64,000 bases of DNA from an uncultured Candidatus Saccharibacteria bacterium (GTDB lineage Bacteria > Patescibacteriota > Saccharimonadia > Saccharimonadales > JAGQNJ01): the NCBI GenBank assembly GCA_964577565.1, contig CAZNZL010000001.1, positions 78,566 through 142,565 on the forward strand, read 5' to 3'. Both the position numbers and the translations under genes were made by a program. This document shows positions 1 to 45,294 of the stretch, one piece after another; within the stretch, counting starts at the first letter, position 1; each line of letters opens with the position of its first letter. The notes under the pieces are model-generated. The model was not told the DNA's origin. It ran no database searches and was given only the letters and a program-made list of their open reading frames with translations.

Positions 1-2232
1 ACGTTTCCGAGCTTTGAGGTTGACCCGCTGGCGGCTATTACTGCCTCATTAGCCAAGCTCGAAGAAAATGAGCGGGCGGTGATTCAGTTTTTGGTACGCC
101 CAGCCTTTAATAGTTGGTATAGCAAGGCGCAAAAGTATGCTGCCAGCATTCAAAATGGCACCAGTTTTGGCGGTCTGGCAAAAGCCTTAATGAGCGGTAC
201 TGATAACACCACCGCTCGACAATTGAGCCCTGTAGAACAAGCGCGCATTAAAGCTGCAGAAGAAAAGAGCCAAAAATTAGCCTACGAGACCAAAATTCGC
301 GTTATTTATGAGGGTAATGTAAGTTCGGTAGAGGCGAATATGCGCCTGCAAGCCATCATTGCCAGCTTCAAACAGTTTAACTCAACTAATCTTAACGGCT
401 TCACGGCCAAGCGCAACCATACGTTTAACCCCGGTGACGCTTCAATTATAAACCGAGTTTTTAGCGGTACTGGTTTTGTGTGCAACATTGAAGAAGTTGC
501 TAGTTTGTATCACCTGCCCCACACCAACGTAGAAACGCCATTTATTCAGTGGGCTACGGCCCGAACCGCCGAACCACCGGCCAATTTGCCGATAGTTTCT
601 GCTAGTGGCTATGATCCGTCGAGCGTCAGCCCGATTGGTGTCACTAACTTTCGTGGCGGCAATACGGCGTTTGGCTTGCCCAGGACCGATCGAGGTCGGC
701 ACCTCTATATTATTGGTCAAACCGGCGTAGGTAAATCGGGTTTACTTGAGCTGTTGACTATATCCGATATTCATAGTCCGTTTGGCTTTGCGGTAATTGA
801 CCCGCACGGCGATTACGCTATTAATATTTTGCGGCGTATTCCGGCTTCACGCGCTAAAGACGTAGTTTATTTTAACCCGGCCGACACAGACTATCCGATT
901 GCCTTTAACCCAATGGAGGTTTATGACGACAAGCTTAAAACTCATACTACTTCAGAGCTTATCGGTGTCTTAAAGCGCATGTTTGAATCTTGGGGCCCGC
1001 GCCTCGAGTACATTTTGCGCTATACCTTGCTTGCCCTGCTTGATTATCCAGAGTCAACCATGCTTGATATTACGCGCATGTTAACCGACAAAAAGTTCCG
1101 TAGCGAGGTGCTTTCGTATGTCAACGACCCGGTCGTAAAAAACTTTTGGTTGGTGGAGTTTGCCAGCTGGAACGACAAATTTGCCGCCGAAGCCGTTGCA
1201 CCAGTGCTCAACAAAGTCGGTGCCTTTACGGCTAACCCAACCGTTCGTAATATTATTGGCCAGCCAAAAAGCAGCTTTAATATCCGACACATTATGGATG
1301 AAAAGAAAATTCTTATTGTTAATCTATCTCGCGGTTTGATTGGTGAGGACAACGCTGCCCTGCTTGGTGCGTTGTTGGTTACCAAAATTCAGATGGCGGC
1401 CATGTCGCGGGCCGATATTGACGCTAGCGAACGCACACCGTTTTATCTGTACGTTGACGAGTTTCAAAACTTTGCCACCGACTCGTTTGCAACCATCTTG
1501 AGTGAGGCACGTAAGTACGGTCTATGCTTAACCGTTGCCAACCAATACATTGCTCAGATGAGCCAAGAGGTACGCGATGCGGTGTTTGGTAACGTTGGCT
1601 CGACTGTTGCCTTTCGAATGGGTGCGGATGACGCTCGCGTGATGCAGCGCTACTTTGAGCCTAAGTTTGAAGAGCATGACCTGGTGCACATGCACAACCG
1701 CAACTTCGTTATTAGCCTTACTATTGGCGGCGAGAAAGTCCAGGCTTTTTCGGGTACCTCACTTAACTTGCCAGCTCGAACCGAGACTGACCAAATGAGT
1801 GCCATTATTGCTCATTCACGTGAACAATACGCGCGCCAATTGCAGCATATCGAGTCATTCGTACAAGAGCGCTACGTCACGCCGTCGGTGCAAGCGACCC
1901 AACCTAAACCACCAAAACCCACACCTAAACCTACACCCGTTGAGCCGCCCAAAGCCACACCACCCGCTAAACCTGCAGATGCTACCCCTGCGCCATCTGC
2001 GCTAGGGGCAGTTATTGTGCCCGAGCCAGAAGTTCTAGATGAAACAAAGCCCAAGCGTAAACGCCGTCGGCGCCGCAAAAAGAAGAACAGTGATAGTAGC
2101 CAGCCTGTCACGCAGTCCTCTACAACTACCGCTATTGAAGAGCGCCCTGAGCACGAGCTTGCCAAGCCAGAAGACGTTGCGCCGCCTAGTGATGGCCATT
2201 TGGGCGACGAAGACACCATCCACCTCCGGTAG
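1..2232 (+). CDS. Type IV secretion coupling-protein-like ATPase (TraD/VirD4/TraG type), 5' end outside window
   Basis: The frame is open from nt 1, with no stop upstream of the track start at 79. Walker A GQTGVGKSG; Walker-B-like FYLYVDEFQNF; C-terminal Pro/Lys/Arg-rich tail (PKPPKPTPKPTP...KRKRRRRRKKK). Confidence 0.75.
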   Translation, partial: TFPSFEVDPLAAITASLAKLEENERAVIQFLVRPAFNSWYSKAQKYAASIQNGTSFGGLAKALMSGTDNTTARQLSPVEQARIKAAEEKSQKLAYETKIRVIYEGNVSSVEANMRLQAIIASFKQFNSTNLNGFTAKRNHTFNPGDASIINRVFSGTGFVCNIEEVASLYHLPHTNVETPFIQWATARTAEPPANLPIVSASGYDPSSVSPIGVTNFRGGNTAFGLPRTDRGRHLYIIGQTGVGKSGLLELLTISDIHSPFGFAVIDPHGDYAINILRRIPASRAKDVVYFNPADTDYPIAFNPMEVYDDKLKTHTTSELIGVLKRMFESWGPRLEYILRYTLLALLDYPESTMLDITRMLTDKKFRSEVLSYVNDPVVKNFWLVEFASWNDKFAAEAVAPVLNKVGAFTANPTVRNIIGQPKSSFNIRHIMDEKKILIVNLSRGLIGEDNAALLGALLVTKIQMAAMSRADIDASERTPFYLYVDEFQNFATDSFATILSEARKYGLCLTVANQYIAQMSQEVRDAVFGNVGSTVAFRMGADDARVMQRYFEPKFEEHDLVHMHNRNFVISLTIGGEKVQAFSGTSLNLPARTETDQMSAIIAHSREQYARQLQHIESFVQERYVTPSVQATQPKPPKPTPKPTPVEPPKATPPAKPADATPAPSALGAVIVPEPEVLDETKPKRKRRRRRKKKNSDSSQPVTQSSTTTAIEERPEHELAKPEDVAPPSDGHLGDEDTIHLR

Positions 2233-2379: not shown

Positions 2380-2444
2380 GAGATACAGAATACTCACGTC
2401 TTGCAGTGCAGGATGCCACTCTGGCAATGGAGAGGAAGGTAAGC

Positions 2445-2858
2445 ATGTCGGATTGTACATTCAGCAACCATGGCCGGACTGTTCAGTTCAGGGATGTCGA
2501 GATCACAATCAATCGTGACCTCGATCGGGAACGCCTGTGGATGTTGGCAGTCCTCTTCAACCCGCTAAGTCCGTCGTGGTCAACCATGGCTGGCGGTTTT
2601 CTACTGCCACTTCCCGAGGAGCGCACCAATGCGCGTGTCGAGGTCATGGTCGTTCGTAACGAGTACGCGGAGCCGCTGACCATCAGCATCCAGCTGCTCA
2701 ACGCAGCAGTGGATCTCAAGCAGTATGTCATGGCGGTCGACTTCCTCGCAAGGCTGATCTCTATGGGGGGTCTGAGCCACGAGCTCTCGCCCTTCGTCAA
2801 TGATCAGCCCATCGAGAGCGACCAGACGACGTACTCGCACGTGACGGTCCATCCGTGA
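2445..2858 (+). CDS. Hypothetical protein (orphan, GC-rich relative to neighbours)
   Basis: The in-frame ATG at 2445 is preceded by GGAGAGGAAGG. The ORF is 137 aa and I recognise no motif in it. Long shadow ORFs on the opposite strand (2483-2800, 2601-2852) are consistent with locally elevated GC. Confidence 0.5.
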   Translation: MSDCTFSNHGRTVQFRDVEITINRDLDRERLWMLAVLFNPLSPSWSTMAGGFLLPLPEERTNARVEVMVVRNEYAEPLTISIQLLNAAVDLKQYVMAVDFLARLISMGGLSHELSPFVNDQPIESDQTTYSHVTVHP

Positions 2859-2960
2859 TCCCCCGGGGGTAATGAGCAGACGTGAGAGTATGTAATTAAA
2901 TGAGTTGTGAGTAGTTACTAACTACGCCCTCTTTATTACTTATTCTGACGCCTGCTTGTT

Positions 2961-3015
2961 ATTCCCTCCATGAATGTGCGTTCATGCTGATGAGTCCAAA
3001 AGGACGAAAGCGAAG
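2961..3015 (+). ncRNA. Candidate type III hammerhead ribozyme
   Basis: CUGAUGA at 2987-2993. Stem II is G-UCC/AAAA/GGA-C (2994-3005). GAAA at 3006-3009. Stem I is the closed hairpin CATGAA-TGTGCG-TTCATG (2969-2986). Open stem III pairs 3009-3014 with 2962-2967 (5 of 6 pairs). Predicted cleavage is after the CUC triplet, at 2968/2969. Confidence 0.6.
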
Positions 3016-3054
3016 ACCCCCAATAATGTTCTTTCCAAAAGAACCAAACCCTCT

Positions 3055-3506
3055 CACACCTTTTGTATGGCCAAAAGGTGTAACCAAAAGGCCACTGGCG
3101 ACTGAAAAACAATGATGTTCATTCACGTGTCTGGTATCCGGATTCTACGTAACGACCCTTCGGGGTCGCCCGGCTTATTGCCGGGTGAGCCTCGAATCAC
3201 GGTATACCAGACTACGCTCATTCTCTTCAGTTTTTCAGAGCCAGAATCCTAGGCTCTGAACACACCCGAATAAGCCAGTCAAAGCTACAACTTCTAGGCC
3301 GAGGATGTTTGAGCCGGCAGCTGCCGGGGAGTTCCGCAAGGCTGTTGTAGTTCTTTGACATATGGCTTATGTCGAGTGGTGTTCAGTCGCCTAGTGGGGT
3401 TTTTGCCTTCTTTTTGACCTACAGCAAAAAGAAGGGCGCTTGAAGGTAACGAAGTTACCGAAGCGAAACTATTTAAACTTTGGTTACACTTTGGTCAATA
3501 CAAAAG
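3055..3506 (+). ncRNA. Large multi-branched structured element (candidate ncRNA; a MITE-like palindromic element is not excluded)
   Basis: Nested complementary segments: 3061-3085/3482-3505, 3092-3106/3382-3397, 3129-3140/3200-3212, 3141-3145/3194-3198 and 3262-3291/3344-3382. Local hairpins: 3154-3167 (UUCG loop), 3169-3185, 3235-3259, 3405-3415/3426-3437 and 3438-3464. Strand is uncertain; + is favoured by the upstream hammerhead and one G-T pair. Confidence 0.4.
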
Positions 3507-3516
3507 TTTCAAAGAC

Positions 3517-4974
3517 TTAAAGATTCTGCAGCTGTTGTTGGAGACGCCGAAGACTAACCTCTTTGCCCAAGACCGCGAGGGTCTCTGCTAAGCCCGGGCT
3601 GGCAGGTGCTTGTGTGACTGCAATGCGAATTAGGCTAAACAGTACAGCTGGCTTTTGGTCGGTGTCTTCAAGCAATTGGTTTAATCGTTCTGTGAGGTCT
3701 TCAACCGAAAAATCACTTTGCTCAATTGAGTTTATGGTAACCTCTAACAGGTTTTTAAGCTCTTGAGCCGACATTTTCTTGAGTTGCTTGTGAGAGGAAA
3801 TAAGCGCATTATCGAGCGGCAAATCTTTAAAGAAAAATATCGTTAATTCTGACAGCTCAGCAAAGTATTTTAAGCGTTCTTGCACAAGGCCCAACACCTG
3901 TTTTTTATATGCATCATCATAATCAGCAGCTTCTTTTGGCCAAAAGCCATCAACCCGGGCGTATAAGTCATCAAGCGATAGCTGTCGGATAAAGTGCCCG
4001 TTAGTCCAGGCCAGGCGGCGCTCATCAAAGTGCGCCCCACTTTTGCCAACACGGCTGAGGCTAAATTTTTGAATGAGCTCATCGGTAGTAAAAATCTCTT
4101 GCTCGGTGCCGTCATTCCAGCCGAGGGTCGCAATAAAGCTCCGCAGCGCTTCCGGCAAATAACCCCGTTTTATGTAATCAAGAATATCTTTGGCGCCATC
4201 GCGCTTAGAAAGTTTTTTGTTGCCTTGTTCATTTAGAATATGCGGCATCGTAGCAAAAATCGGTGGTTTTATGCCGAGGGCTTCGTACAAGTTGAGGTAA
4301 TTTGGTATGCTGGCAATAAACTCCTGGCCGCGAATAACGTGCGTAATCTGCATCTCTGCATCATCAACAATGTGCGCAAAATTATAGGTTGGGTAGCTAT
4401 CTGACTTAATAAGAATAAAATCGTCAATTACCTCCGGGCCGGTTGATAAATCACCCATGACCTCGTCATGCCATTGATAACTTTTAGGGTCGGATTTAAA
4501 ACGCAAGGGTTGGGTGCCATCCCAGGCTGGTGGGTTCTCTGGCCGGTGGTTGCGGTATAAAAATGGTTTTTTGCTTGCTTTAGCTTGTTCACGGAAGACC
4601 TGAACTTCTTCAGGGCTGTATGGGTCTGCATAGGCTCTACCCTGCTCAATTAATTTATTGGCCCATTGTTTGTAAATTTCAAGCCGCTCGCTTTGGCGAT
4701 ATGGCCCGAAGTCACCCGCTTTGTCTGGACCCTCGTCGTACTCCAAGCCAAGCGCATCAAGGCTTTGAATTAAATGTTCGGCTGAGCCTTCGACTTCCCG
4801 TTTCTTATCGGTGTCTTCAAGTCGTAATATAAATTGTCCGTTATGCTGGCGCGCTACCAACCAGGCAAATAAGGCGGTGCGGATGCCGCCAACGTGTAAA
4901 AAGCCCGTTGGGCTTGGCGCAAATCTAGTTCGCACCCTGTTCACTTGAGACTCCGTTATTAGAATGTGTCGCAC
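3517..4974 (-). CDS. gltX: Glutamate--tRNA ligase
   Basis: RFAPSPTGFLHVGG (HIGH-type motif) and KLSKR (KMSKS-type motif). Full length is typical of bacterial GluRS. The true start may be slightly downstream of 4974. Confidence 0.95.
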   Translation of the reverse strand: MRHILITESQVNRVRTRFAPSPTGFLHVGGIRTALFAWLVARQHNGQFILRLEDTDKKREVEGSAEHLIQSLDALGLEYDEGPDKAGDFGPYRQSERLEIYKQWANKLIEQGRAYADPYSPEEVQVFREQAKASKKPFLYRNHRPENPPAWDGTQPLRFKSDPKSYQWHDEVMGDLSTGPEVIDDFILIKSDSYPTYNFAHIVDDAEMQITHVIRGQEFIASIPNYLNLYEALGIKPPIFATMPHILNEQGNKKLSKRDGAKDILDYIKRGYLPEALRSFIATLGWNDGTEQEIFTTDELIQKFSLSRVGKSGAHFDERRLAWTNGHFIRQLSLDDLYARVDGFWPKEAADYDDAYKKQVLGLVQERLKYFAELSELTIFFFKDLPLDNALISSHKQLKKMSAQELKNLLEVTINSIEQSDFSVEDLTERLNQLLEDTDQKPAVLFSLIRIAVTQAPASPGLAETLAVLGKEVSLRRLQQQLQNL

Positions 4975-5206
4975 TATGCACTTTTAAAGCGTACCCTAGT
5001 TTAGCTACCCCACCCATGGTTAAGGCTAATCCGGTAACACCAGATATTCCACTTGGTACTTCGGGTATAAAGTCTACTACTGCTTCAGCAACAAAACCTG
5101 CGGCGACGACCAGATGACCTATCCCGATAAGGGCTAATTTATTCCGAAGAGAATGGCCTTCATGATCAATAGATGGATTGACTTCTTGGGGTTCATACTG
5201 TGGCAT
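4925..5206 (-). CDS. Small hydrophobic hypothetical protein
   Basis: 93-aa ORF with a Gly/Ala/Val-rich hydrophobic core. Its 3' end overlaps the annotated gltX start. Confidence 0.3.
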   Translation of the reverse strand: MPQYEPQEVNPSIDHEGHSLRNKLALIGIGHLVVAAGFVAEAVVDFIPEVPSGISGVTGLALTMGGVAKLGYALKVHSATHSNNGVSSEQGAN

Positions 5207-5275
5207 GTTTCAACTATTGTAACAGATATAGCCCTTTACCTCTATGACTTTGGCGGGCTGGTTTGGAGTGTGTGG

Positions 5276-6340
5276 TTACAGGCTGCTAGCTATGTTGACT
5301 AGCTGATCGCTGCTCAGTGACGTGCTTTCTATGCGATACCAAACGCCGCCGTTAACCCAGGTTGCATTACCCCTGTCGTACAGGTAGATAGTTTTGCCTT
5401 TTTCTTGTTCTATTTCAAACTCTTTGTCGTTGGTGGCAAGAAAGTTCTCTTGCAAGCTGCTGCTGTTCCAGTGGGATACTTCTTGCGTTAGAGTGTAAGC
5501 CCGATCGTCGGTATTTGAGTTAAACGAAATAACCACTTGACCAGGTTTGTAGCTAATAGGAGCTTTAACTTTATAACCCGATGGTTGATACTCGGGCAAA
5601 TTAGCATCAAAACCAGCGCGAGCACTGGCCAGCTGCATATTAAAGTTTGGAATATTCATATACGCTATAAAGCCAATGAGCGCCAGGCCGGCAAGCAGGC
5701 CGCTGCTCCAGGCAAACTTCTTACTCTTGCGATTTTGTCTTTTAGTGCGAGATTTTATTGCGGGCTTTGTTGCCTCGGCGCTGCGTTGCATAGCCTTATT
5801 AAACAGCTCTTCAGAGGCAGAAGATCGAACAGTTGCGTGCTCGGTGTGCCTTACGGGGGTGATAGGCTGGTGTAGGCGAGGCTTATGAGCGGGCGGCGTC
5901 TTCACTTGCAGTGGTTCGTGGCGCTTTTCTACGGGACGATGTACGGGGTGATTGCCAAATTTGCTGATGTATGGACTTTTAGCAATGGTTTGCGCTCGCG
6001 TTTCTCTTAACGGGTTAATAAGGCGTTGTCGATGAATTGGTTTTATTTCATTAATTTGACCCAGCGTAGCCGGCTTTTTAACTGCCCTGCGCATAAGGGT
6101 TTTTGACTTTTGTGGTTTGTGATGTTTGACACTATGACTGACATGCTGGCGCACCGGTTTTGGTTTTAGGGTTGGTGTGCTGCGCTGAGGGGATACTTTA
6201 GCGGGGCTGGCTTTTGTAGTAACTGATTTAACAACCCGGGGCTGTACAAATCCATCAACCGATTGCCCGCGTATTGGTACGCCAGTTCGTACATCGTACA
6301 CTCGTCCGTTAATTTCTAGAACGTTTTTGTGCTTACTCAC
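5276..6340 (-). CDS. Membrane-anchored hypothetical protein
   Basis: 354-aa ORF. It has a very basic Pro/Lys-rich N-terminal half, one hydrophobic segment (WSSGLLAGLALIGFIAYM), and a C-terminal globular part. Confidence 0.6.
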   Translation of the reverse strand: MSKHKNVLEINGRVYDVRTGVPIRGQSVDGFVQPRVVKSVTTKASPAKVSPQRSTPTLKPKPVRQHVSHSVKHHKPQKSKTLMRRAVKKPATLGQINEIKPIHRQRLINPLRETRAQTIAKSPYISKFGNHPVHRPVEKRHEPLQVKTPPAHKPRLHQPITPVRHTEHATVRSSASEELFNKAMQRSAEATKPAIKSRTKRQNRKSKKFAWSSGLLAGLALIGFIAYMNIPNFNMQLASARAGFDANLPEYQPSGYKVKAPISYKPGQVVISFNSNTDDRAYTLTQEVSHWNSSSLQENFLATNDKEFEIEQEKGKTIYLYDRGNATWVNGGVWYRIESTSLSSDQLVNIASSL

Positions 6341-6461
6341 AGATTAGTTGGCCCTCTGTTATGAATGTCCTTATAATCATAACCTCTTTATGTCGTCTTA
6401 CGCAAGCTTTAGCCTGCCCTAGTCTTATACTGGTCGACATGCTATAACTATAATAGTTGTT

Positions 6462-7940
6462 ATGGATTTTTTAGACCCAAACAAAAAACGCTCAAATCGA
6501 ATTAAATTGTACGTAGGCTACGGTCTTATGGCGATTTTAATTGGTATCGCTACTTCTATTTTGCTGCTTGCAGCTTCTGGCTATGGCTTAGATGGTTCTG
6601 GCAAGGTTATTCAAAACGGCTTAGTTTTTGTTAACTCGCGGCCTGGCGGTGCTGATGTGTATATTGAAGGTATTCATAATAAATACAAGCAGCAGGCCAA
6701 AACCGATACCCGCCTGGTGCTTAAAGAGGGCCGGTACAGACTTACGTTGGTTAAGGATGGTTATCGTTCGTGGCAACGAGAATTTAGTCTTGAGGGCAGC
6801 AGCGTAGAACGGTTTGCCTATCCATTTTTATTCCCAGAAAACATTAAAACCGAAGATGTTAAAACCTACGCCACCCCACCAAAGTTTATCGCGCAAAGTC
6901 CCTCACGCGAGTGGATTGTAGTTCAGCAGCCTGACAAGTTTGACACATTTGATGTTTATAACGCTAATGATCCAGACAAACCACCGGTTTCGTTTGCGGT
7001 GCCGGCCACTATTCTAACGCCTGCTACAAATGATCAATCGCTTGAGCTGGTTGAATGGTCTACCGATAACGCCAACATGCTGCTCAAACACACGTTTGAT
7101 GGCCAAGAAGAGTTTGTCGTAATTAACCGAGATCGTCCAGCAGAATCTTTTAATGTTACGGCGCGCACCAACCAACGCCCGTATCGAGTGGCCCTCAAAG
7201 ACAAAAAGGTCGATAAACTCTACCTTCATATGGCAAAGGATGGCCTTTTACAAGAAGTAGATTTGGCGTCCGGTGTCTTGACGCCGCTGGTAGCGCGAGC
7301 CTTTGCATTTAAACCGCACGGTGATGACATGGTGGTGTATGTTACGCCGCATGCAAGTAAAGCAGACAGAACATCGGTTCGCTTATTGACCCGTGAAAAA
7401 GACTATGAGCTGCGCGAGTTGCCCAGTAACACTACGTATGTCGTAGATGTAGCTCGTTTTGATGATGCCTGGTATGTGGTAGCAGGTGCCGCCAGCGAGA
7501 ACCAGGTGTTTGTTTACAAAGACCCGTTGAGCATCCTGACCAACGCTAATTCTAAAGAATCCCTGTTTGCCCGGACGCTGCGGATTGATAACCCCCAAAA
7601 AGTCTCGTTCTCTGCCAACGCAAGAATGATTGCGGCTCAATCAGGCCAGTCATTTGCGGTGTACGATGCAGAGACCGACCGCCAGTACCGCTATACGCTG
7701 CCCGCACCTATTGACTCCGGTCGCCCGGCCGAGTGGATGGATGGTCACCGTTTGCTAACCTCTACAGAAAAAACGGCTTACGTCTTTGATTTTGACGGTA
7801 TTAATCCGCAAAAATTACTCTCGGCTGACCCTTCGGTTACTATCATGTTCGATCGTGATTACGAGCTTTGTTACAGCGTAACAACCAATAGCGATGGCAC
7901 TGCCGTACTAAAACGGGGCAAGCTCGTCATCGAAGATTAG
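6462..7940 (+). CDS. PEGA domain-containing membrane protein
   Basis: N-terminal TM helix, then a PEGA-like segment (VNSRPGGADVYIEG...GRYRLTLVKDGYRSWQREF). Confidence 0.7.
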   Translation: MDFLDPNKKRSNRIKLYVGYGLMAILIGIATSILLLAASGYGLDGSGKVIQNGLVFVNSRPGGADVYIEGIHNKYKQQAKTDTRLVLKEGRYRLTLVKDGYRSWQREFSLEGSSVERFAYPFLFPENIKTEDVKTYATPPKFIAQSPSREWIVVQQPDKFDTFDVYNANDPDKPPVSFAVPATILTPATNDQSLELVEWSTDNANMLLKHTFDGQEEFVVINRDRPAESFNVTARTNQRPYRVALKDKKVDKLYLHMAKDGLLQEVDLASGVLTPLVARAFAFKPHGDDMVVYVTPHASKADRTSVRLLTREKDYELRELPSNTTYVVDVARFDDAWYVVAGAASENQVFVYKDPLSILTNANSKESLFARTLRIDNPQKVSFSANARMIAAQSGQSFAVYDAETDRQYRYTLPAPIDSGRPAEWMDGHRLLTSTEKTAYVFDFDGINPQKLLSADPSVTIMFDRDYELCYSVTTNSDGTAVLKRGKLVIED

Positions 7941-10117: not shown

Positions 10118-10909
10118 ATTATTAAGTTCATAAATTGCCGTGGTGAGGGCGGCGAAGATTTTGCTGGGGTTTTGCATGGTCCACACAGCACAGCGCGTGG
10201 CGGTTTGTACGCGCCAGATGCTCTCGTCATTGCTGTCTTTGGTGGTTGAAACTTCACCGTCTTTGGCACAATAAAAGATATCATTGTGTTTAATAACAAT
10301 TGCAGCACTATGTATCGTCGTAAATAAATGTAGGTTTTCAACCATAATTGCAAGCGGCATATCATAGGTAAAGGCCTCTGTAAAACGCATGCCGGTTGCG
10401 ATTTTTTGCAGTTGAGCAAAACTGGCTACGATGGTAGTGTCGGCTCTGTCAATAAGTTTGTCAGGTAGATTCGTAAAGTAATCGAGCGCATCGTGCGTAA
10501 TGGTTATCTGGCCGGAGTATTTTTGAATAAACTGCTCTAAGACAACGGCGGTTTCGCTATTGCGACCCATATCGCCCGACAATAGTACTCCATCACTCCA
10601 TTGAGCAAAGTCAAGCCACTGGGCAAGCGCTTCTTTACTAAAGCTGCCGCTTTTTGTACTTGGTGCAAACTCGCCGTTTTCAAATATACGGCCAATGGTC
10701 TGTTTTAATGCGTCAGGTAGTAGTACTTTTACCGCGCCCGCTCCGGCACTTGCGGCAGCTTGATATGCCGTAGCGGGCACCGTAAAGCTATGAGCGTTAC
10801 CGCCAACTATAAGCAGCTTACCAGCGTGTTGCTTGTTTTCCGGCTTATCCCACAGTAGCTCGTCGTAAAGCGGTTTGTCGCCTTGTTTATGCCAGTATGT
10901 AGTGCTCAC
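10112..10909 (-). CDS. YjeF C-terminal-like (NAD(P)HX dehydratase-fold) protein
   Basis: HAGKLLIVGGNAHSFTVPATAYQAAASAGAGAVKVLLP resembles the N-terminal signature of YjeF_C. I did not recognise the C-terminal GxGD motif. Confidence 0.5.
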   Translation of the reverse strand: MSTTYWHKQGDKPLYDELLWDKPENKQHAGKLLIVGGNAHSFTVPATAYQAAASAGAGAVKVLLPDALKQTIGRIFENGEFAPSTKSGSFSKEALAQWLDFAQWSDGVLLSGDMGRNSETAVVLEQFIQKYSGQITITHDALDYFTNLPDKLIDRADTTIVASFAQLQKIATGMRFTEAFTYDMPLAIMVENLHLFTTIHSAAIVIKHNDIFYCAKDGEVSTTKDSNDESIWRVQTATRCAVWTMQNPSKIFAALTTAIYELNNL

Positions 10910-40029: not shown

Positions 40030-41313
40030 GTGAACACCTGCGATAGTGCAGTTTTGGAAAATGTGATGAAAAAAGATGACAAGCAGCCCAAGAAACCAAA
40101 CAAAAAGCCGCAATCAAAAGCGGCTAAGCAGCCTGTCAAAAAACCAAAGACCGATGACGTTAAACCAGTCGAGATAACTCTACCTGCAAAACAAACACCG
40201 CCAGAGGCAACGCCAGCACAAGTTTTTCGTGATAGACGTATCGCTAGGCAAAAGAGTTATGACCTAGATTTGGACGCTAAAAAGTATCGTTCTGGGTTGT
40301 CTGTTGATGAGTGGCAAGAGTTACTGAAAAAAGACCCTAGTCTATTAACGCCAAGACAAGCAAAGCAACTTGAACAAGCCAACGAAATGGCTATGGAAAT
40401 AGCAAAGCGTATATCGGCTCAGTATGACTTTTCAGGCATTGCCAAGATGTTTAGTACGCTGGAAACCCTGCCAATGGCTCGTATTGCACAAGACGCTCAA
40501 CGGTTTGCCCTCGCAACCCAAAAACTACAAACCAGCTTTATTGTGCCTGCTCAACAGCTCGTCTCAATACAGCAAAAACTCGCTATTACTACTGGCATAA
40601 TCGGACAATCGTTTATGGCAACTGCTCACGCTGCAAATCTTACTCGCAGTCTGTTTGAAAGCATAAACTCAATGAGCGAAATGATTGTTAAGGCATTTGC
40701 TGTTGACCTAGCCTCAATCAGTACGACATTTGCTAAGTTTACGCCTGTTGAAACAATCAACCTCGATGACATTGAGGTAATTGACCGTGACGGCAATGTA
40801 ACCGTTGTTAGCGACACAAGCCGCACAAAACGCATAGATGATGACTACCAGCTTATAGAAACGGCTAGGCTAGATTTGTTGTTTACCGAGCTAAAAGCCA
40901 CACGCAGCGAGCTTAGCGAGGTAAAACGGCTCGTTACAGGCAAGCTGGAAAGTGGTATTACAAAAATTGCATATGCAGATATTAAGTTTTTGATTGAAAG
41001 CTCAAAGCTGCTTATCAAAGGCTATCCAGTGTTCGTACAACGCAGCTCAAAGCAAGCCAAGTTTTGTAACTTTTTCTTTAACTCAATAGAAAACTTTACA
41101 AAAAAGTGGGACGTTACACATCTGATGGAACTGGTATTTACAATGCATATTGGAACTGATGGCAGTGAGGACAACTTTAATGCGATTATCAAAGGCTATG
41201 TTGAGGCGTTGAATATCAAGATTGCAGCAGCTACAAAGGGTCAAGTAACTGACTTTTTCGTACTTTTGAACTACGAGGTTTATATAAACCCAAAATACTT
41301 ATCTAATCTGTAA
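40030..41313 (+). CDS. Hypothetical protein with Lys/Pro-rich N terminus
   Basis: 427-aa ORF, divergent from the excisionase-like gene. No motif recognised. Confidence 0.55.
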   Translation: MNTCDSAVLENVMKKDDKQPKKPNKKPQSKAAKQPVKKPKTDDVKPVEITLPAKQTPPEATPAQVFRDRRIARQKSYDLDLDAKKYRSGLSVDEWQELLKKDPSLLTPRQAKQLEQANEMAMEIAKRISAQYDFSGIAKMFSTLETLPMARIAQDAQRFALATQKLQTSFIVPAQQLVSIQQKLAITTGIIGQSFMATAHAANLTRSLFESINSMSEMIVKAFAVDLASISTTFAKFTPVETINLDDIEVIDRDGNVTVVSDTSRTKRIDDDYQLIETARLDLLFTELKATRSELSEVKRLVTGKLESGITKIAYADIKFLIESSKLLIKGYPVFVQRSSKQAKFCNFFFNSIENFTKKWDVTHLMELVFTMHIGTDGSEDNFNAIIKGYVEALNIKIAAATKGQVTDFFVLLNYEVYINPKYLSNL

Positions 41314-43262: not shown

Positions 43263-44735
43263 ATGAAAACTAAGGCATTTTTAATAGCAAGGGTATCAGA
43301 CCCTGAACAACGGCAGGCACTACCTGCACAGGTTTTACGGCTTGAAAAATACGCAAAAGATAAAGGCTACGACTACGAACTATTTGAGTTTGATGAAAGT
43401 GCATATAAAGATAACCGCAAAACTTTCAGCAAGATTGTTGAAAGCATACGCAACTACCCTGAAAACTGCATTGTGGTCTTTGATAAGATTGACCGCTATA
43501 CAAGGGATAGTTCGGCTGATGAGGTTAAGACACTGAACAAGCTGCGTGAGGACGGCAAGATTGAAATACACTTTCCGTCTGATAACTTGGCTGTTCATAA
43601 AAACTCGCCAGCACCTGACTTGTTCCGTCTAGGTATTGGCGTTGCACTTGCTCGCTACTACTCTGACAGCATTAGAGATAATGTTAAACGCCGCTTTGAG
43701 CAAAAGCTGAACGATGGCGAGTGGCCTGGTAAAGCACCGATTGGCTATGTAAATCACAGGATTAGCGACAAAGAAACAACGGTGCTACTTGATCAAGAGC
43801 GAGCTGGCTATATCAAAAAGGCATTTGAGCTGAGACTAATCGGTACACCATATAGAGGCATTGCCGCCCAACTCAAAAAAGAGGGTTTGCGAAACAATAC
43901 AGCCAAGCGTACACCAATTGGGCAAGGCTATATTGAGCAGATACTAAAAAATCCGTTCTACTATGGCGTTATGCGGTACAACGGCAAGCTGTACCCTCAC
44001 AAGTACGAGCCACTTATCAGCCGCAAGATGTTTGATAAGGTCCAAGCCGTAAATGAACAGCGAGGCACTAATCGCACCAAGAAACAAGCAATTGACTACA
44101 CCTTTAACGGCTTACTGAAATGTGGCAGTTGCGGTTGCAGTATTTCGTCTTATACAGCCAAAGGTAACGTCTATATGCAATGCAGCAAAGGCAAAGGTCC
44201 GTGCAAACAGCCACACATCAAAGAAAAGGACCTTGTGCCGCAGGTTGCTGCTATGGTTGGTCAGCTTGAAATGAACGAGGATATTGTTAACTACGTTATT
44301 GATGAACTACGCAAGCACCACGATAACCAACAGCTGTATTATGCAAATGCCATTGAGCAGACACGCACCGAGTACGACACAATACAGAAAAAGCTGCGTG
44401 TTTTGTATGACGATAGGCTCGATGGGCGTATTACTCTCACTGACTATGACGAATATGTAAAGGACCTAAAAGCTCGACAAGAGCAATTAGACGAACAGCT
44501 AGTTAGCTTGACGCATAACGATAAGAGTTTTATGCTAACCAGTTCGTATCTGTTAGAGATAGCTACAAAAGCCCCTCAATTGTTTCAAAGTTCGAAAGCG
44601 GCTCTAAAATCTAAGTTATTAAGGTTTTTACTTTCGAACTTGGTAATTCACGATAAAAAGCTCGTTTTCAATCTAAAAGCACCCTTTGATGTAATCGCCG
44701 AGTGCTCTCAAACTCAATCTTGGCTCCGGGGATAG
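43263..44735 (+). CDS. Large serine recombinase (integrase)
   Basis: N-terminal resolvase-type catalytic region (FLIARVSDPEQ), a recombinase domain, a Cys-rich zinc ribbon (CGSCGCSISSY...CSKGKGPCKQPH), and a coiled-coil tail. The last 5 codons and the TAG stop lie inside the tRNA-Asn 3' end. Confidence 0.9.
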   Translation: MKTKAFLIARVSDPEQRQALPAQVLRLEKYAKDKGYDYELFEFDESAYKDNRKTFSKIVESIRNYPENCIVVFDKIDRYTRDSSADEVKTLNKLREDGKIEIHFPSDNLAVHKNSPAPDLFRLGIGVALARYYSDSIRDNVKRRFEQKLNDGEWPGKAPIGYVNHRISDKETTVLLDQERAGYIKKAFELRLIGTPYRGIAAQLKKEGLRNNTAKRTPIGQGYIEQILKNPFYYGVMRYNGKLYPHKYEPLISRKMFDKVQAVNEQRGTNRTKKQAIDYTFNGLLKCGSCGCSISSYTAKGNVYMQCSKGKGPCKQPHIKEKDLVPQVAAMVGQLEMNEDIVNYVIDELRKHHDNQQLYYANAIEQTRTEYDTIQKKLRVLYDDRLDGRITLTDYDEYVKDLKARQEQLDEQLVSLTHNDKSFMLTSSYLLEIATKAPQLFQSSKAALKSKLLRFLLSNLVIHDKKLVFNLKAPFDVIAECSQTQSWLRG

Positions 44736-44738: not shown

Positions 44739-45052
44739 TCGAACCTACGACCTAGTGGTTACACATTACCCATTATTTTCATAATGGCATGGACTATCTC
44801 ATCATCCGGCTATTGCCGGATGCTGGGCGCTAGTGAAGGATTATTGTTGGGCTCACCTTCTAGTCTCTGAACCTTCCGAAGGGCATGACCCCACCTTCGG
44901 CTTGGCTGCGGATTACCATGTCCGCCTTCTGGCGGATTTAGGCTTCCCGCAATTCACCCAGTTTTCACTGTTTTGTTGCCAAAACAGGCTGCACTTTATT
45001 GAGTAACTCAATGTGACTACAGCCACCCGCTCTACCGCTGAGCTACCCCGGA
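44721..45052 (-). tRNA. tRNA-Asn(GUU) interrupted by a group I intron
   Basis: Exon 1 (45052-45019) is TCCGGGGTAGCTCAGCGGTAGAGCGGGTGGCTGT. Exon 2 (44761-44721) is TAACCACTAGGTCGTAGGTTCGAATCCTATCCCCGGAGCCA. Joined, they give the loop CU-GUU-AA, a 5-nt variable loop and discriminator G. The UCC...GGA-G-CCA ends match my recollection of E. coli tRNA-Asn. Confidence 0.8.
44762..45018 (-). ncRNA. Group I intron (IC3-like), 257 nt, in the anticodon loop
   Basis: The 5' exon ends in U, and the P1 guide GCAGCC (44987-44992, reverse complement) pairs with GGCUGU with a terminal U-G. The intron ends in G. Core blocks AGCCAAGCCGAAGG, GGAAGGUUCAGAGACUAGAAGG and AGAUAGUCC resemble the tRNA-Leu and Azoarcus-type introns. 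Confidence 0.75.
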
Positions 45053-45294
45053 ATAAATTGTGATATGTACTCTCGACCCTTGTGCGACTTGAGTTGTTTT
45101 TCTCTCTCGATCGCTTCAGAGCGAGTGGCAAATGATTCTTTATAAATCATCTCCCATCTACCCTGAAATCGTGCAGTATAACTTTTTGATTTATGTTTAT
45201 TATTGTGCGCAATAAGTCGCGCGTCAATATTCTGGGTCTGGCCAATGTATACTTTCTTTACCGTGGGGTTGTATATTACATATACAAAAAACAT
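45043..45294 (-). CDS. GIY-YIG nuclease family small protein
   Basis: FVYVIYN...KVYIGQTQNIDARLIAHN...AIEREKQLK. The stop codon overlaps the first 10 nt of tRNA-Asn. Confidence 0.8.
   Translation of the reverse strand: MFFVYVIYNPTVKKVYIGQTQNIDARLIAHNNKHKSKSYTARFQGRWEMIYKESFATRSEAIEREKQLKSHKGREYISQFIPG

Follow-up and report, generated by a model that had tools for sequence, protein, structure and literature searches.

The window analyzed here, a 64,000-nucleotide (nt) stretch of a Candidatus Saccharibacteria chromosome, carries at positions 2961–3015 of its forward strand a motif that reads, as RNA, AUUCCCU-C-CAUGAAU-GUGC-GUUCAUG-CUGAUGA-GUCC-AAAA-GGAC-GAAA-GCGAAG, and we are highly confident that this motif is a true hammerhead ribozyme homologue. 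The broader statement, that the window encodes a canonical type III hammerhead acting as a cis RNA-processing and insulating element, includes a function; taken as a whole we consider it rather probable, and hold it with reserve. The kind of element is already known: type III hammerheads have been described in bacterial intergenic regions since 2010–2011.

Fold and family of the motif

The motif contains the elements that define a type III hammerhead. The catalytic core strand CUGAUGA (C3–A9, 2987–2993), assigned from the sequence and from alignment to a family covariance model (R1, described below), supplies C3 U4 G5 A6 N7 G8 A9, and the GAAA block at 3006–3009 (G12 A13 A14 A15.1) supplies G12 A13 A14 (3006–3008) together with A3009, which pairs with U2967 as A15.1-U16.1. 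Position 17 is C2968, a non-G residue that completes the N-U-H triplet CUC, and scission is predicted from the family-model alignment to fall between C2968 and C2969. Stem II (2994–3005, GUCC-AAAA-GGAC, 2994–2997 pairing with 3002–3005) is closed by the G10.1-C11.1 pair (G2994-C3005), continues for 3 base pairs (bp) and is capped by a loop. Stem I (2969–2986) is a closed hairpin in which CAUGAAU (2969–2975) pairs with GUUCAUG (2980–2986) around loop 1, GUGC; its N1.1-N2.1 position is paired, with C2969-G2986 abutting the core. Helix III is open. Its 5' strand (2961–2967, positions 16.7–16.1 in the family-model alignment) faces the 3' strand GCGAAG (3010–3015, positions 15.2–15.7), and five of six positions pair: U2967-A3009 and C2966-G3010, then a C2965·C3011 mispair (16.3/15.3), then 3 bp. 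An earlier note on this DNA, made from the letters alone, had proposed a hammerhead here, and most of its anatomy is borne out: the coordinates and strand, the two core blocks CUGAUGA and GAAA, the four-pair stem II with its tetraloop, the A15.1-U16.1 pair with the CUC triplet, and an open stem III with five of six pairs. Its stem I was correctly drawn as a hairpin directly on the core, but the proposed 6 bp and 6-nt loop give way to 7 bp (six Watson-Crick pairs plus a U2975·G2980 wobble) and the GUGC loop.

A type III descriptor of our own (stem I of at least 5 bp on the core, stem II of at least 4 bp, GAAA, a U-H site and at least five of seven stem III pairs) had 2961–3015 as its sole match on both strands of the window. 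When the whole window was shuffled 300 times with its dinucleotides preserved, the same descriptor matched once, which puts the chance expectation at ~0.003 per 64 kb.

Relatives were collected with a pattern that fixed only the core and the GUCC/GGAC stem II (CTGATGAGTCC-N4-6-GGACGAAA), scanned over one genome per bacterial or archaeal species. The scan gave at least 118 loci, with 131 matches listed. A 5' hairpin abutting the core was present in 118 of the 131 matches listed, and 113 of them had a well-formed type III layout (stem I of at least 5 bp, U-H site, stem III of at least 4 contiguous bp). In these 113 listed copies stem I occurs in 81 different sequences and stem III in 53, and 93 of the copies have a stem I of exactly 7 bp. 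Since the pattern left the flanks unconstrained, the high proportion of well-formed copies is unbiased evidence of selection for flank pairing.

A gap-free alignment was made of 76 distinct relatives, the rows being picked for intact helices. Under the hammerhead structure 91.7% of its cells pair, compared with 32–45% when the partners were slid. Stems I and III together have 12 pairs with double-sided changes (403 such cells vs ~125 after shuffling and 41–67 after sliding), and covariation was seen in six of the seven stem I pairs. R1, the covariance model built from these 76 relatives (E values roughly calibrated), found extra copies with other complementary stem II sequences: GCUC/GAGC in seven cases, and GUCG/CGAC, GGCU/AGCC, GCCG/CGGC, GAGU/ACUC and GUCA/UGAC. 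Stem II variants thus stay complementary in independently found copies, and all three helices covary, as the note's suggested comparison of homologues was meant to reveal.

With filters off, R1 gave one strong match in the window, exactly at 2961–3015 (68.4 bits, E ~7e-20), in whose alignment the modelled helices are interrupted internally at the C·C pair only. Pattern matches consisting of a core without flanking helices scored 15–26.5 bits by R1; therefore ~40 of the window's bits are contributed by elements outside the fixed core (stems I and III and loop 1). Core, helices and a family-model match in the same register together support the type III identity first proposed from the letters. 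The window copy also has the commonest triplet of the family, CUC (31 of 118 parsed copies among the matches listed), and its commonest loop 2, AAAA (73/118, likewise among those listed). U2975, the last 5'-strand base of stem I, occupies a position that is an invariant U among the 76 relatives, and the first loop 1 base (G2976) is G in at least 90% of them, so the loop elements of the predicted tertiary contact (the U at the top of stem I, the first G of loop 1 and an A-rich loop 2) are as in the family. We take these loop 1 and loop 2 residues to resemble the loops of the hammerhead from the satellite RNA of tobacco ringspot virus (sTRSV). Elsewhere in the window, three weak R1 matches lie at 41130–41298 (14.2, 12.8 and 8.0 bits; E 0.07–8) in AT-rich sequence with no intact core, and are most likely due to chance.

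Well-formed copies were found in at least 100 loci, distributed over Saccharibacteria/Saccharimonadia (51), other members of the Candidate Phyla Radiation (CPR; 27), unclassified genomes (10) and other phyla (12); ~78% of the carrying genomes among the matches listed are labelled Saccharibacteria or other CPR, a proportion that is indicative only since a single stem II sequence was fixed. A viral scan gave 53 contigs with R1 scores of 65–75 bits, among which a phage contig often carries more than one copy, and contigs of 322–377 nt, the size of viroid-like satellite RNAs, scored 64–69 bits. An earlier viral scan with a stem-I-specific pattern had given no matches. The core and stem II pattern also retrieved a 532-nt contig labelled 'Bacterium D16-36' (RAYF01000220.1, our locus L064), which contains ...UUCCGGUCUGAUGAGUCCGUGAGGACGAAACAG... 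and ...TTCCGGTCTGATGAGTCCGTGAGGACGAAACAGCCTCTACAAATA and which we take to be the sTRSV-derived synthetic RiboJ insulator; it is probably vector contamination of a genome assembly. Judging from the phage, viroid-sized and L064 matches, R1 in effect models the canonical loop-loop type III hammerhead, and the type III architecture is not specific to CPR.

Genomic contexts of the family and of the window copy

Family copies are mostly intergenic. Among the matches listed, ~70 of the 90 copies that could be scored follow a gene of the same orientation, and the start of an open reading frame (ORF) led by a Shine–Dalgarno (SD) sequence lies within 160 nt downstream of 44 of the 113 well-formed copies. 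In four loci (L100, L033, L063 and L043) a hammerhead lies 58–128 nt upstream of genes for Ribosomal_S2 (rpsB), Cpn10/groES, a UvrD-like helicase and dTDP-4-dehydrorhamnose epimerase (rfbC); since copies stand ahead of housekeeping genes in CPR genomes, the ribozyme is not confined to mobile elements. Same-strand arrays also occur, with ten copies in L040 (8 kb), six in L010 (3338–6412) and five in L106. The copies of the L040 array (2474–6529, forward strand), which comes from a Parcubacteria metagenome-assembled genome (MAG; JANLIU010000041.1), share stem III and bound homologous ~300-nt units, each with three covarying hairpins and no SD-led ORF. Judged by its sequence, L040 is a hammerhead-punctuated array of structured non-coding RNA, and its units could in principle be circularised. 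No paper linking hammerheads with Saccharibacteria or CPR was found in the searchable literature. The CPR concentration, the structured-RNA arrays and the housekeeping contexts may therefore be unreported; they are a family-level lead, not a property of the window.

Short sequence motifs accompany parts of the family. Just 5' of the hammerhead, (G)TCTGCTTGTCAT is conserved in ~17 Saccharibacteria copies (including those of L052, L112, L073, L067, L057, L117, L063, L099 with two copies, L012, L098, L032, L097 and L113), and at several of these loci a hairpin with a T-run (TCACGG-N4-CCGTGATGTTTTTC) lies further upstream. The window version, CTGCTTGTTAT (2952–2962, forward strand), is degenerate relative to the consensus CTGCTTGTCAT. 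Reading this motif as a reverse-strand gene start (GGAG..ATGACAAGCAG) was rejected, as the frames stop after 5–33 codons and are unconserved. An OFF switch, in which its UGCUU would pair with A14–15.4, is present in the minimum-free-energy (MFE) fold but shows no consistent covariation in the subfamily and was dropped. Downstream, a motif GTTCTTTGA / GATCTTTGA lies within 70 nt of 27 of the 118 copies listed (e.g. L003, L010, L022, L049 and L109) and in many copies from Parcubacteria/Paceibacteria it recurs 5–11 nt beyond stem III. It resembles boxA. No rRNA lies in 18 such loci and the genes downstream are diverse, so that a boxA or rRNA leader is at most a possibility for the family. It has no bearing on the window, where the GTTCTTTGA-like sequence (3027–3040) is simply the 5' arm of hairpin 1 in the structured domain described below.

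The window hammerhead lies between a gene for a VirD4/TraG-like type IV secretion coupling protein (79–2232, forward strand) and gltX, encoding glutamyl-tRNA synthetase (3517–4974, reverse strand, convergent with the hammerhead), both assigned by Pfam, which form the upstream and downstream boundaries of a variable insertion. The nearest GltX relatives are annotated as Saccharibacteria/Saccharimonadales. An orphan ORF, ORF150 (2406–2858, forward strand), ends 102 nt before the hammerhead and is a candidate gene only: Pfam assigns it to no family, a search of 5.8 billion proteins gave no relative, and it is unrelated to the ORF that occupies the corresponding site in L012. This last locus, from a Saccharibacteria MAG, is syntenic with the window (78% identity for the VirD4-like protein, 75% for GltX and 63% for ORF354) and carries a hammerhead at the corresponding place, which scores 61.7 bits and whose stem III, UUCGCU/AGCGAG, is unbroken. 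Conserved blocks are shared by L012 and the window across the spacer downstream of the ribozyme; no homology links the two over the ~720 nt that separate the ribozyme from the VirD4-like gene. Another locus, L252, belongs to the same lineage as L012. An exact-block metagenome scan for orthologues of the spacer gave no matches, and plasmid and phage records showed no similarity to the spacer or to the structured domain.

Other relatives differ at this site. The order of the VirD4-like gene and gltX is kept in L174, L209 and L218, with a spacer of only 200–300 nt. In another Saccharibacteria lineage (L215, 7815–10311) the same hot-spot holds unrelated cargo ORFs (66 and 414 amino acids, no Pfam family), after which a different well-formed type III hammerhead (10191–10247) stands ~30 nt from the gltX stop. 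Among the relatives compared, the insertion with the window's hammerhead is shared only with L012. From these synteny comparisons we conclude that the ribozyme belongs to an insertion specific to its lineage, at a hot-spot whose content varies. Sporadic occurrence beside small non-conserved ORFs has already been described for prokaryotic hammerheads (PMC6155905, PMC3088659); the earlier note's remark that none was known from such a genomic context is accordingly not upheld, an intergenic type III hammerhead beside small non-conserved ORFs being the published norm.

A gene-ribozyme cassette was considered and rejected, as the proteins flanking the 113 listed well-formed copies share no family (blastp, 1e-5) and ORF150 is an orphan. 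Association with a prophage was not observed either: no integrase or phage gene lies beside the hammerhead, and the nearest recombinase, a large serine recombinase (43263–44735, forward strand), is 40 kb off. Adjoining that recombinase, a complete group I intron match (44770–45011, reverse strand, 91.9 bits) directly follows a small GIY-YIG nuclease ORF (45043–45294, reverse strand); no interrupted host gene or tRNA was identified for the intron.

Directly 3' of the ribozyme lies a structured domain of ~385 nt (3016–3404), a candidate RNA or DNA element recognized by its folding z-score, 3016–3400 folding at z = -10.5 on either strand. In its outer helix CCCCC (3018–3022) pairs with GGGGU (~3395–3399), and a U-run follows (3400–3404). 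Enclosed are hairpin 1 (3028–3044), hairpin 2 (3056–3081), in which two pairs show compensatory changes, and two long hairpins, A (3095–3244) and B (3249–3394). The L012 domain has the same plan (z = -9.0), with poor sequence conservation in the long hairpins. Rfam searches of 3010–3530 gave no second ribozyme and no known RNA family (E ≤ 5); the domain occurs once in the 64-kb window and has no match in ~250 other loci, plasmids or phages. G·U pairs are more numerous on the hammerhead strand in L012 (17 vs 9) and few in the window, and the attempt to assign the strand of the domain from this asymmetry was dropped because the window and L012 are contradictory. In a rough survey of 300-nt flanks (50 copies, 15 shuffles each), z was below -4 in 13 downstream and 19 upstream flanks, from which it appears that hairpin-rich RNA commonly accompanies these ribozymes.

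Proposed role and competing explanations

In the mechanism that we propose, read-through transcription from the upstream VirD4-like/ORF150 unit would produce an RNA that folds into the three-way junction and self-cleaves between C2968 and C2969. By established hammerhead chemistry the upstream fragment would end in a 2',3'-cyclic phosphate and the downstream one would begin with a 5'-OH. Cleavage would detach the upstream message from a downstream RNA comprising the ribozyme body, the ~385-nt structured domain and its U-run end, and the hammerhead would act as a cis processing and insulating element. Clustered bacterial hammerheads have been proposed to cut long transcripts into unit RNAs, and tandem copies cleave in vitro (PMC3088659). 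The same-strand context, the arrays and the structured units of the family fit this published proposal, from which we infer the same role for the window copy.

Several results weigh against this role or against the working ribozyme that it requires. Among 80 metagenomic loci picked solely by VirD4-like homology, seven had weak or moderate hammerhead matches, none of them immediately downstream, and no hammerhead was found in the six loci that surround the closest GltX relatives, where other genes lie beyond gltX. Absence from most of these relatives means that there is no long-term positional conservation, and a broad conservation of position was rejected on the same two sets of loci. No promoter or terminator consensus was found near the hammerhead. 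Stem III is a further weak point. Close relatives have UUCGCU opposite AGCGAA, and the window has UUCCCU, so that G stands in the relatives in place of C2965; at least 4 contiguous stem III pairs are present in 113 of the 118 parsed relatives listed, and the window has 2 bp, the C·C and 3 bp. Internal mispairs of stem III are rare (3–7%): of the copies detected with the family model, 4 of 126 in genomes and 6 of 85 in viral sequences have one. The probability of the hammerhead junction, computed from secondary structure only, is 0.015 for the window vs a median of 0.36 for the 76 relatives, placing the window in the lowest 4% (mispair effect ~25-fold), and with flanks of 20–40 nt it is 0.0001–0.0007. 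The MFE fold of 2950–3025 recovers both hairpins but prefers another outer helix over stem III, and its stability is no better than that of shuffled sequences (z = -0.9). Lastly, RF00008 (Hammerhead_3) with permissive filters gave 20.9 bits against a cut-off of 48.5, with stem I deleted in the alignment; at gathering thresholds Rfam reports only the group I intron and two tRNAs in the window.

The RF00008 search had been named in the earlier note as a check, with a score below gathering counting against a hammerhead. The score is indeed below gathering, and the outcome is uninformative since ~38 of 40 relatives are also missed. At gathering, RF00008 passes only 2 of ~40 family-model-detectable copies in 18 related loci, and it misses L052 and L074, both with perfect helices and the GCGAA-type stem III of the window. 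Because relatives with perfect helices fail too, the low score reflects the model and its threshold, not the absence of a hammerhead; a gathering score is a curation threshold and no biological definition. It also follows from the detection of 2 of ~40 clear copies in these 18 CPR loci that routine annotation misses most of the family.

The mispair bears more directly on activity. The C2965·C3011 mispair would probably slow any cleavage, or leave more of the RNA uncut, in comparison with relatives; the window copy is plausibly active, its activity being probably attenuated. Replacement of C2965 by G alone is predicted to raise the junction probability to 0.69, and the window copy and its intact L012 orthologue form a natural mutant/wild-type pair. 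A serious rival is that the motif is a true hammerhead by descent that is now decaying into a dead relic, the C2965·C3011 mispair being the first step of erosion after the lineage-specific insertion. The rarity of such mispairs in the family, a folding probability in the lowest 4% that a single substitution restores, the degenerate upstream motif (CTGCTTGTTAT rather than CTGCTTGTCAT), the sporadic occurrence of the hammerhead among syntenic relatives and an orphan neighbour without relatives are all what decay would predict. However, every other core, loop and helix position is at the family consensus, as the 68.4 bits reflect. The published filter for hammerheads discards candidates with several mispairs or with one next to the core, but would keep a copy whose single mispair is distal (PMC3088659). 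Moreover, the folding energies used here, like nearest-neighbour energies in general, leave out the loop-loop tertiary contact that stabilizes natural hammerheads, and hammerheads with a weak stem III are known to function, viroid and newt hammerheads by dimeric cleavage (PMC6155905). We regard decay as a possibility to be taken seriously, less than an even prospect, and favor an attenuated processing element.

Alternatively, the hammerhead and the 385-nt domain may together derive from a selfish or mobile element that inserted at the 3' flank of gltX, such as a palindromic element like a miniature inverted-repeat transposable element or a DNA copy of a viroid- or retrozyme-like RNA, with no host function. 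Relative to L174, L209 and L218, with their 200–300-nt spacers, the orphan region, hammerhead and domain are an insertion, and the hot-spot in L215 holds other cargo and another type III hammerhead. The equal stability of the domain on both strands and the few G·U pairs in the window are as expected for DNA inverted repeats, and phage contigs and the viroid-sized contigs of 322–377 nt carry the same hammerhead architecture. Against this reading, the domain is single-copy in 64 kb, without a copy in ~250 loci or a plasmid or phage match, and no transposase, integrase or reverse transcriptase is adjacent. With one ribozyme only, and no second one found, no unit-length RNA could be excised. The architecture has also been kept between the window and L012 despite their divergence, and the G·U excess in L012 (17 vs 9) suggests selection on RNA. 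We consider a mobile footprint unlikely. A chance resemblance without ribozyme ancestry, to which the sub-threshold RF00008 score and the unremarkable local fold (z = -0.9) might point, is effectively refuted by the family-level evidence, namely 68.4 bits vs a core-only maximum of 26.5, the orthologous copy in L012, and the family-specific residues of both loops and the upstream motif of the subfamily, which the window shares, together with the single match of the looser descriptor in 300 window shuffles.

Comparison with known systems

By itself the window element adds little. The wider interest lies in an architecture that abounds in genomes of Saccharibacteria and other CPR, is mostly missed by the Rfam threshold, and occurs in arrays, before core genes and amid structured RNA. 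It is conceivable, and we put it forward as speculation, that CPR including Saccharibacteria adopted the type III hammerhead as a general chromosomal device for RNA maturation, which would cut read-through and polycistronic RNA ahead of rpsB and groES and excise structured non-coding RNAs from hammerhead-punctuated arrays, perhaps to be circularised, and in which the window ribozyme would be the 5' end of a new ~440-nt structured RNA whose gene lies next to that for the type IV secretion coupling protein. With their reduced genomes, and now partly cultivable, CPR bacteria are possibly tractable for testing the function of chromosomal hammerheads.

Among known hammerheads, the sTRSV-type satellite ribozymes (RF00008) share with the window copy the core, the open helix III, a stem I of 6–7 bp, a U-GUGC/U-type loop, the GUCC-N4-GGAC stem II and a G/C-U-C triplet, and two family copies pass RF00008 gathering. 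In contrast to these satellites, the window copy is single-copy bacterial chromosomal DNA with no circular RNA replicon; its loop 2 is AAAA instead of GUGA, and its stem III has another sequence and is mispaired.

A second parallel is offered by the hammerheads of bacteria and prophages (Perreault et al., 2011, PMC3088659; de la Pena, 2017, PMC6155905). They too are intergenic and near small non-conserved ORFs, and, as with the relatives described here, they are clustered around single genes with variable neighbours, and the same unit-RNA role has been proposed for them. Those two papers stress integrases and prophages, whereas the neighbours in the window are the chromosomal gene for a type IV secretion coupling protein and gltX. 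The CPR copies differ further in preceding rpsB and groES and in punctuating arrays of structured RNA.

Highly structured non-coding RNA flanked by type III hammerheads is also a feature of plant retrozymes and viroid-like circular RNAs. The window differs from these in having one ribozyme and no repeat, with no release of a unit-length RNA, but resembles them in that its hammerhead is joined directly to a strongly paired domain. The likeness extends further in L040, where hammerheads with the same stem III stand on both sides of ~300-nt units.

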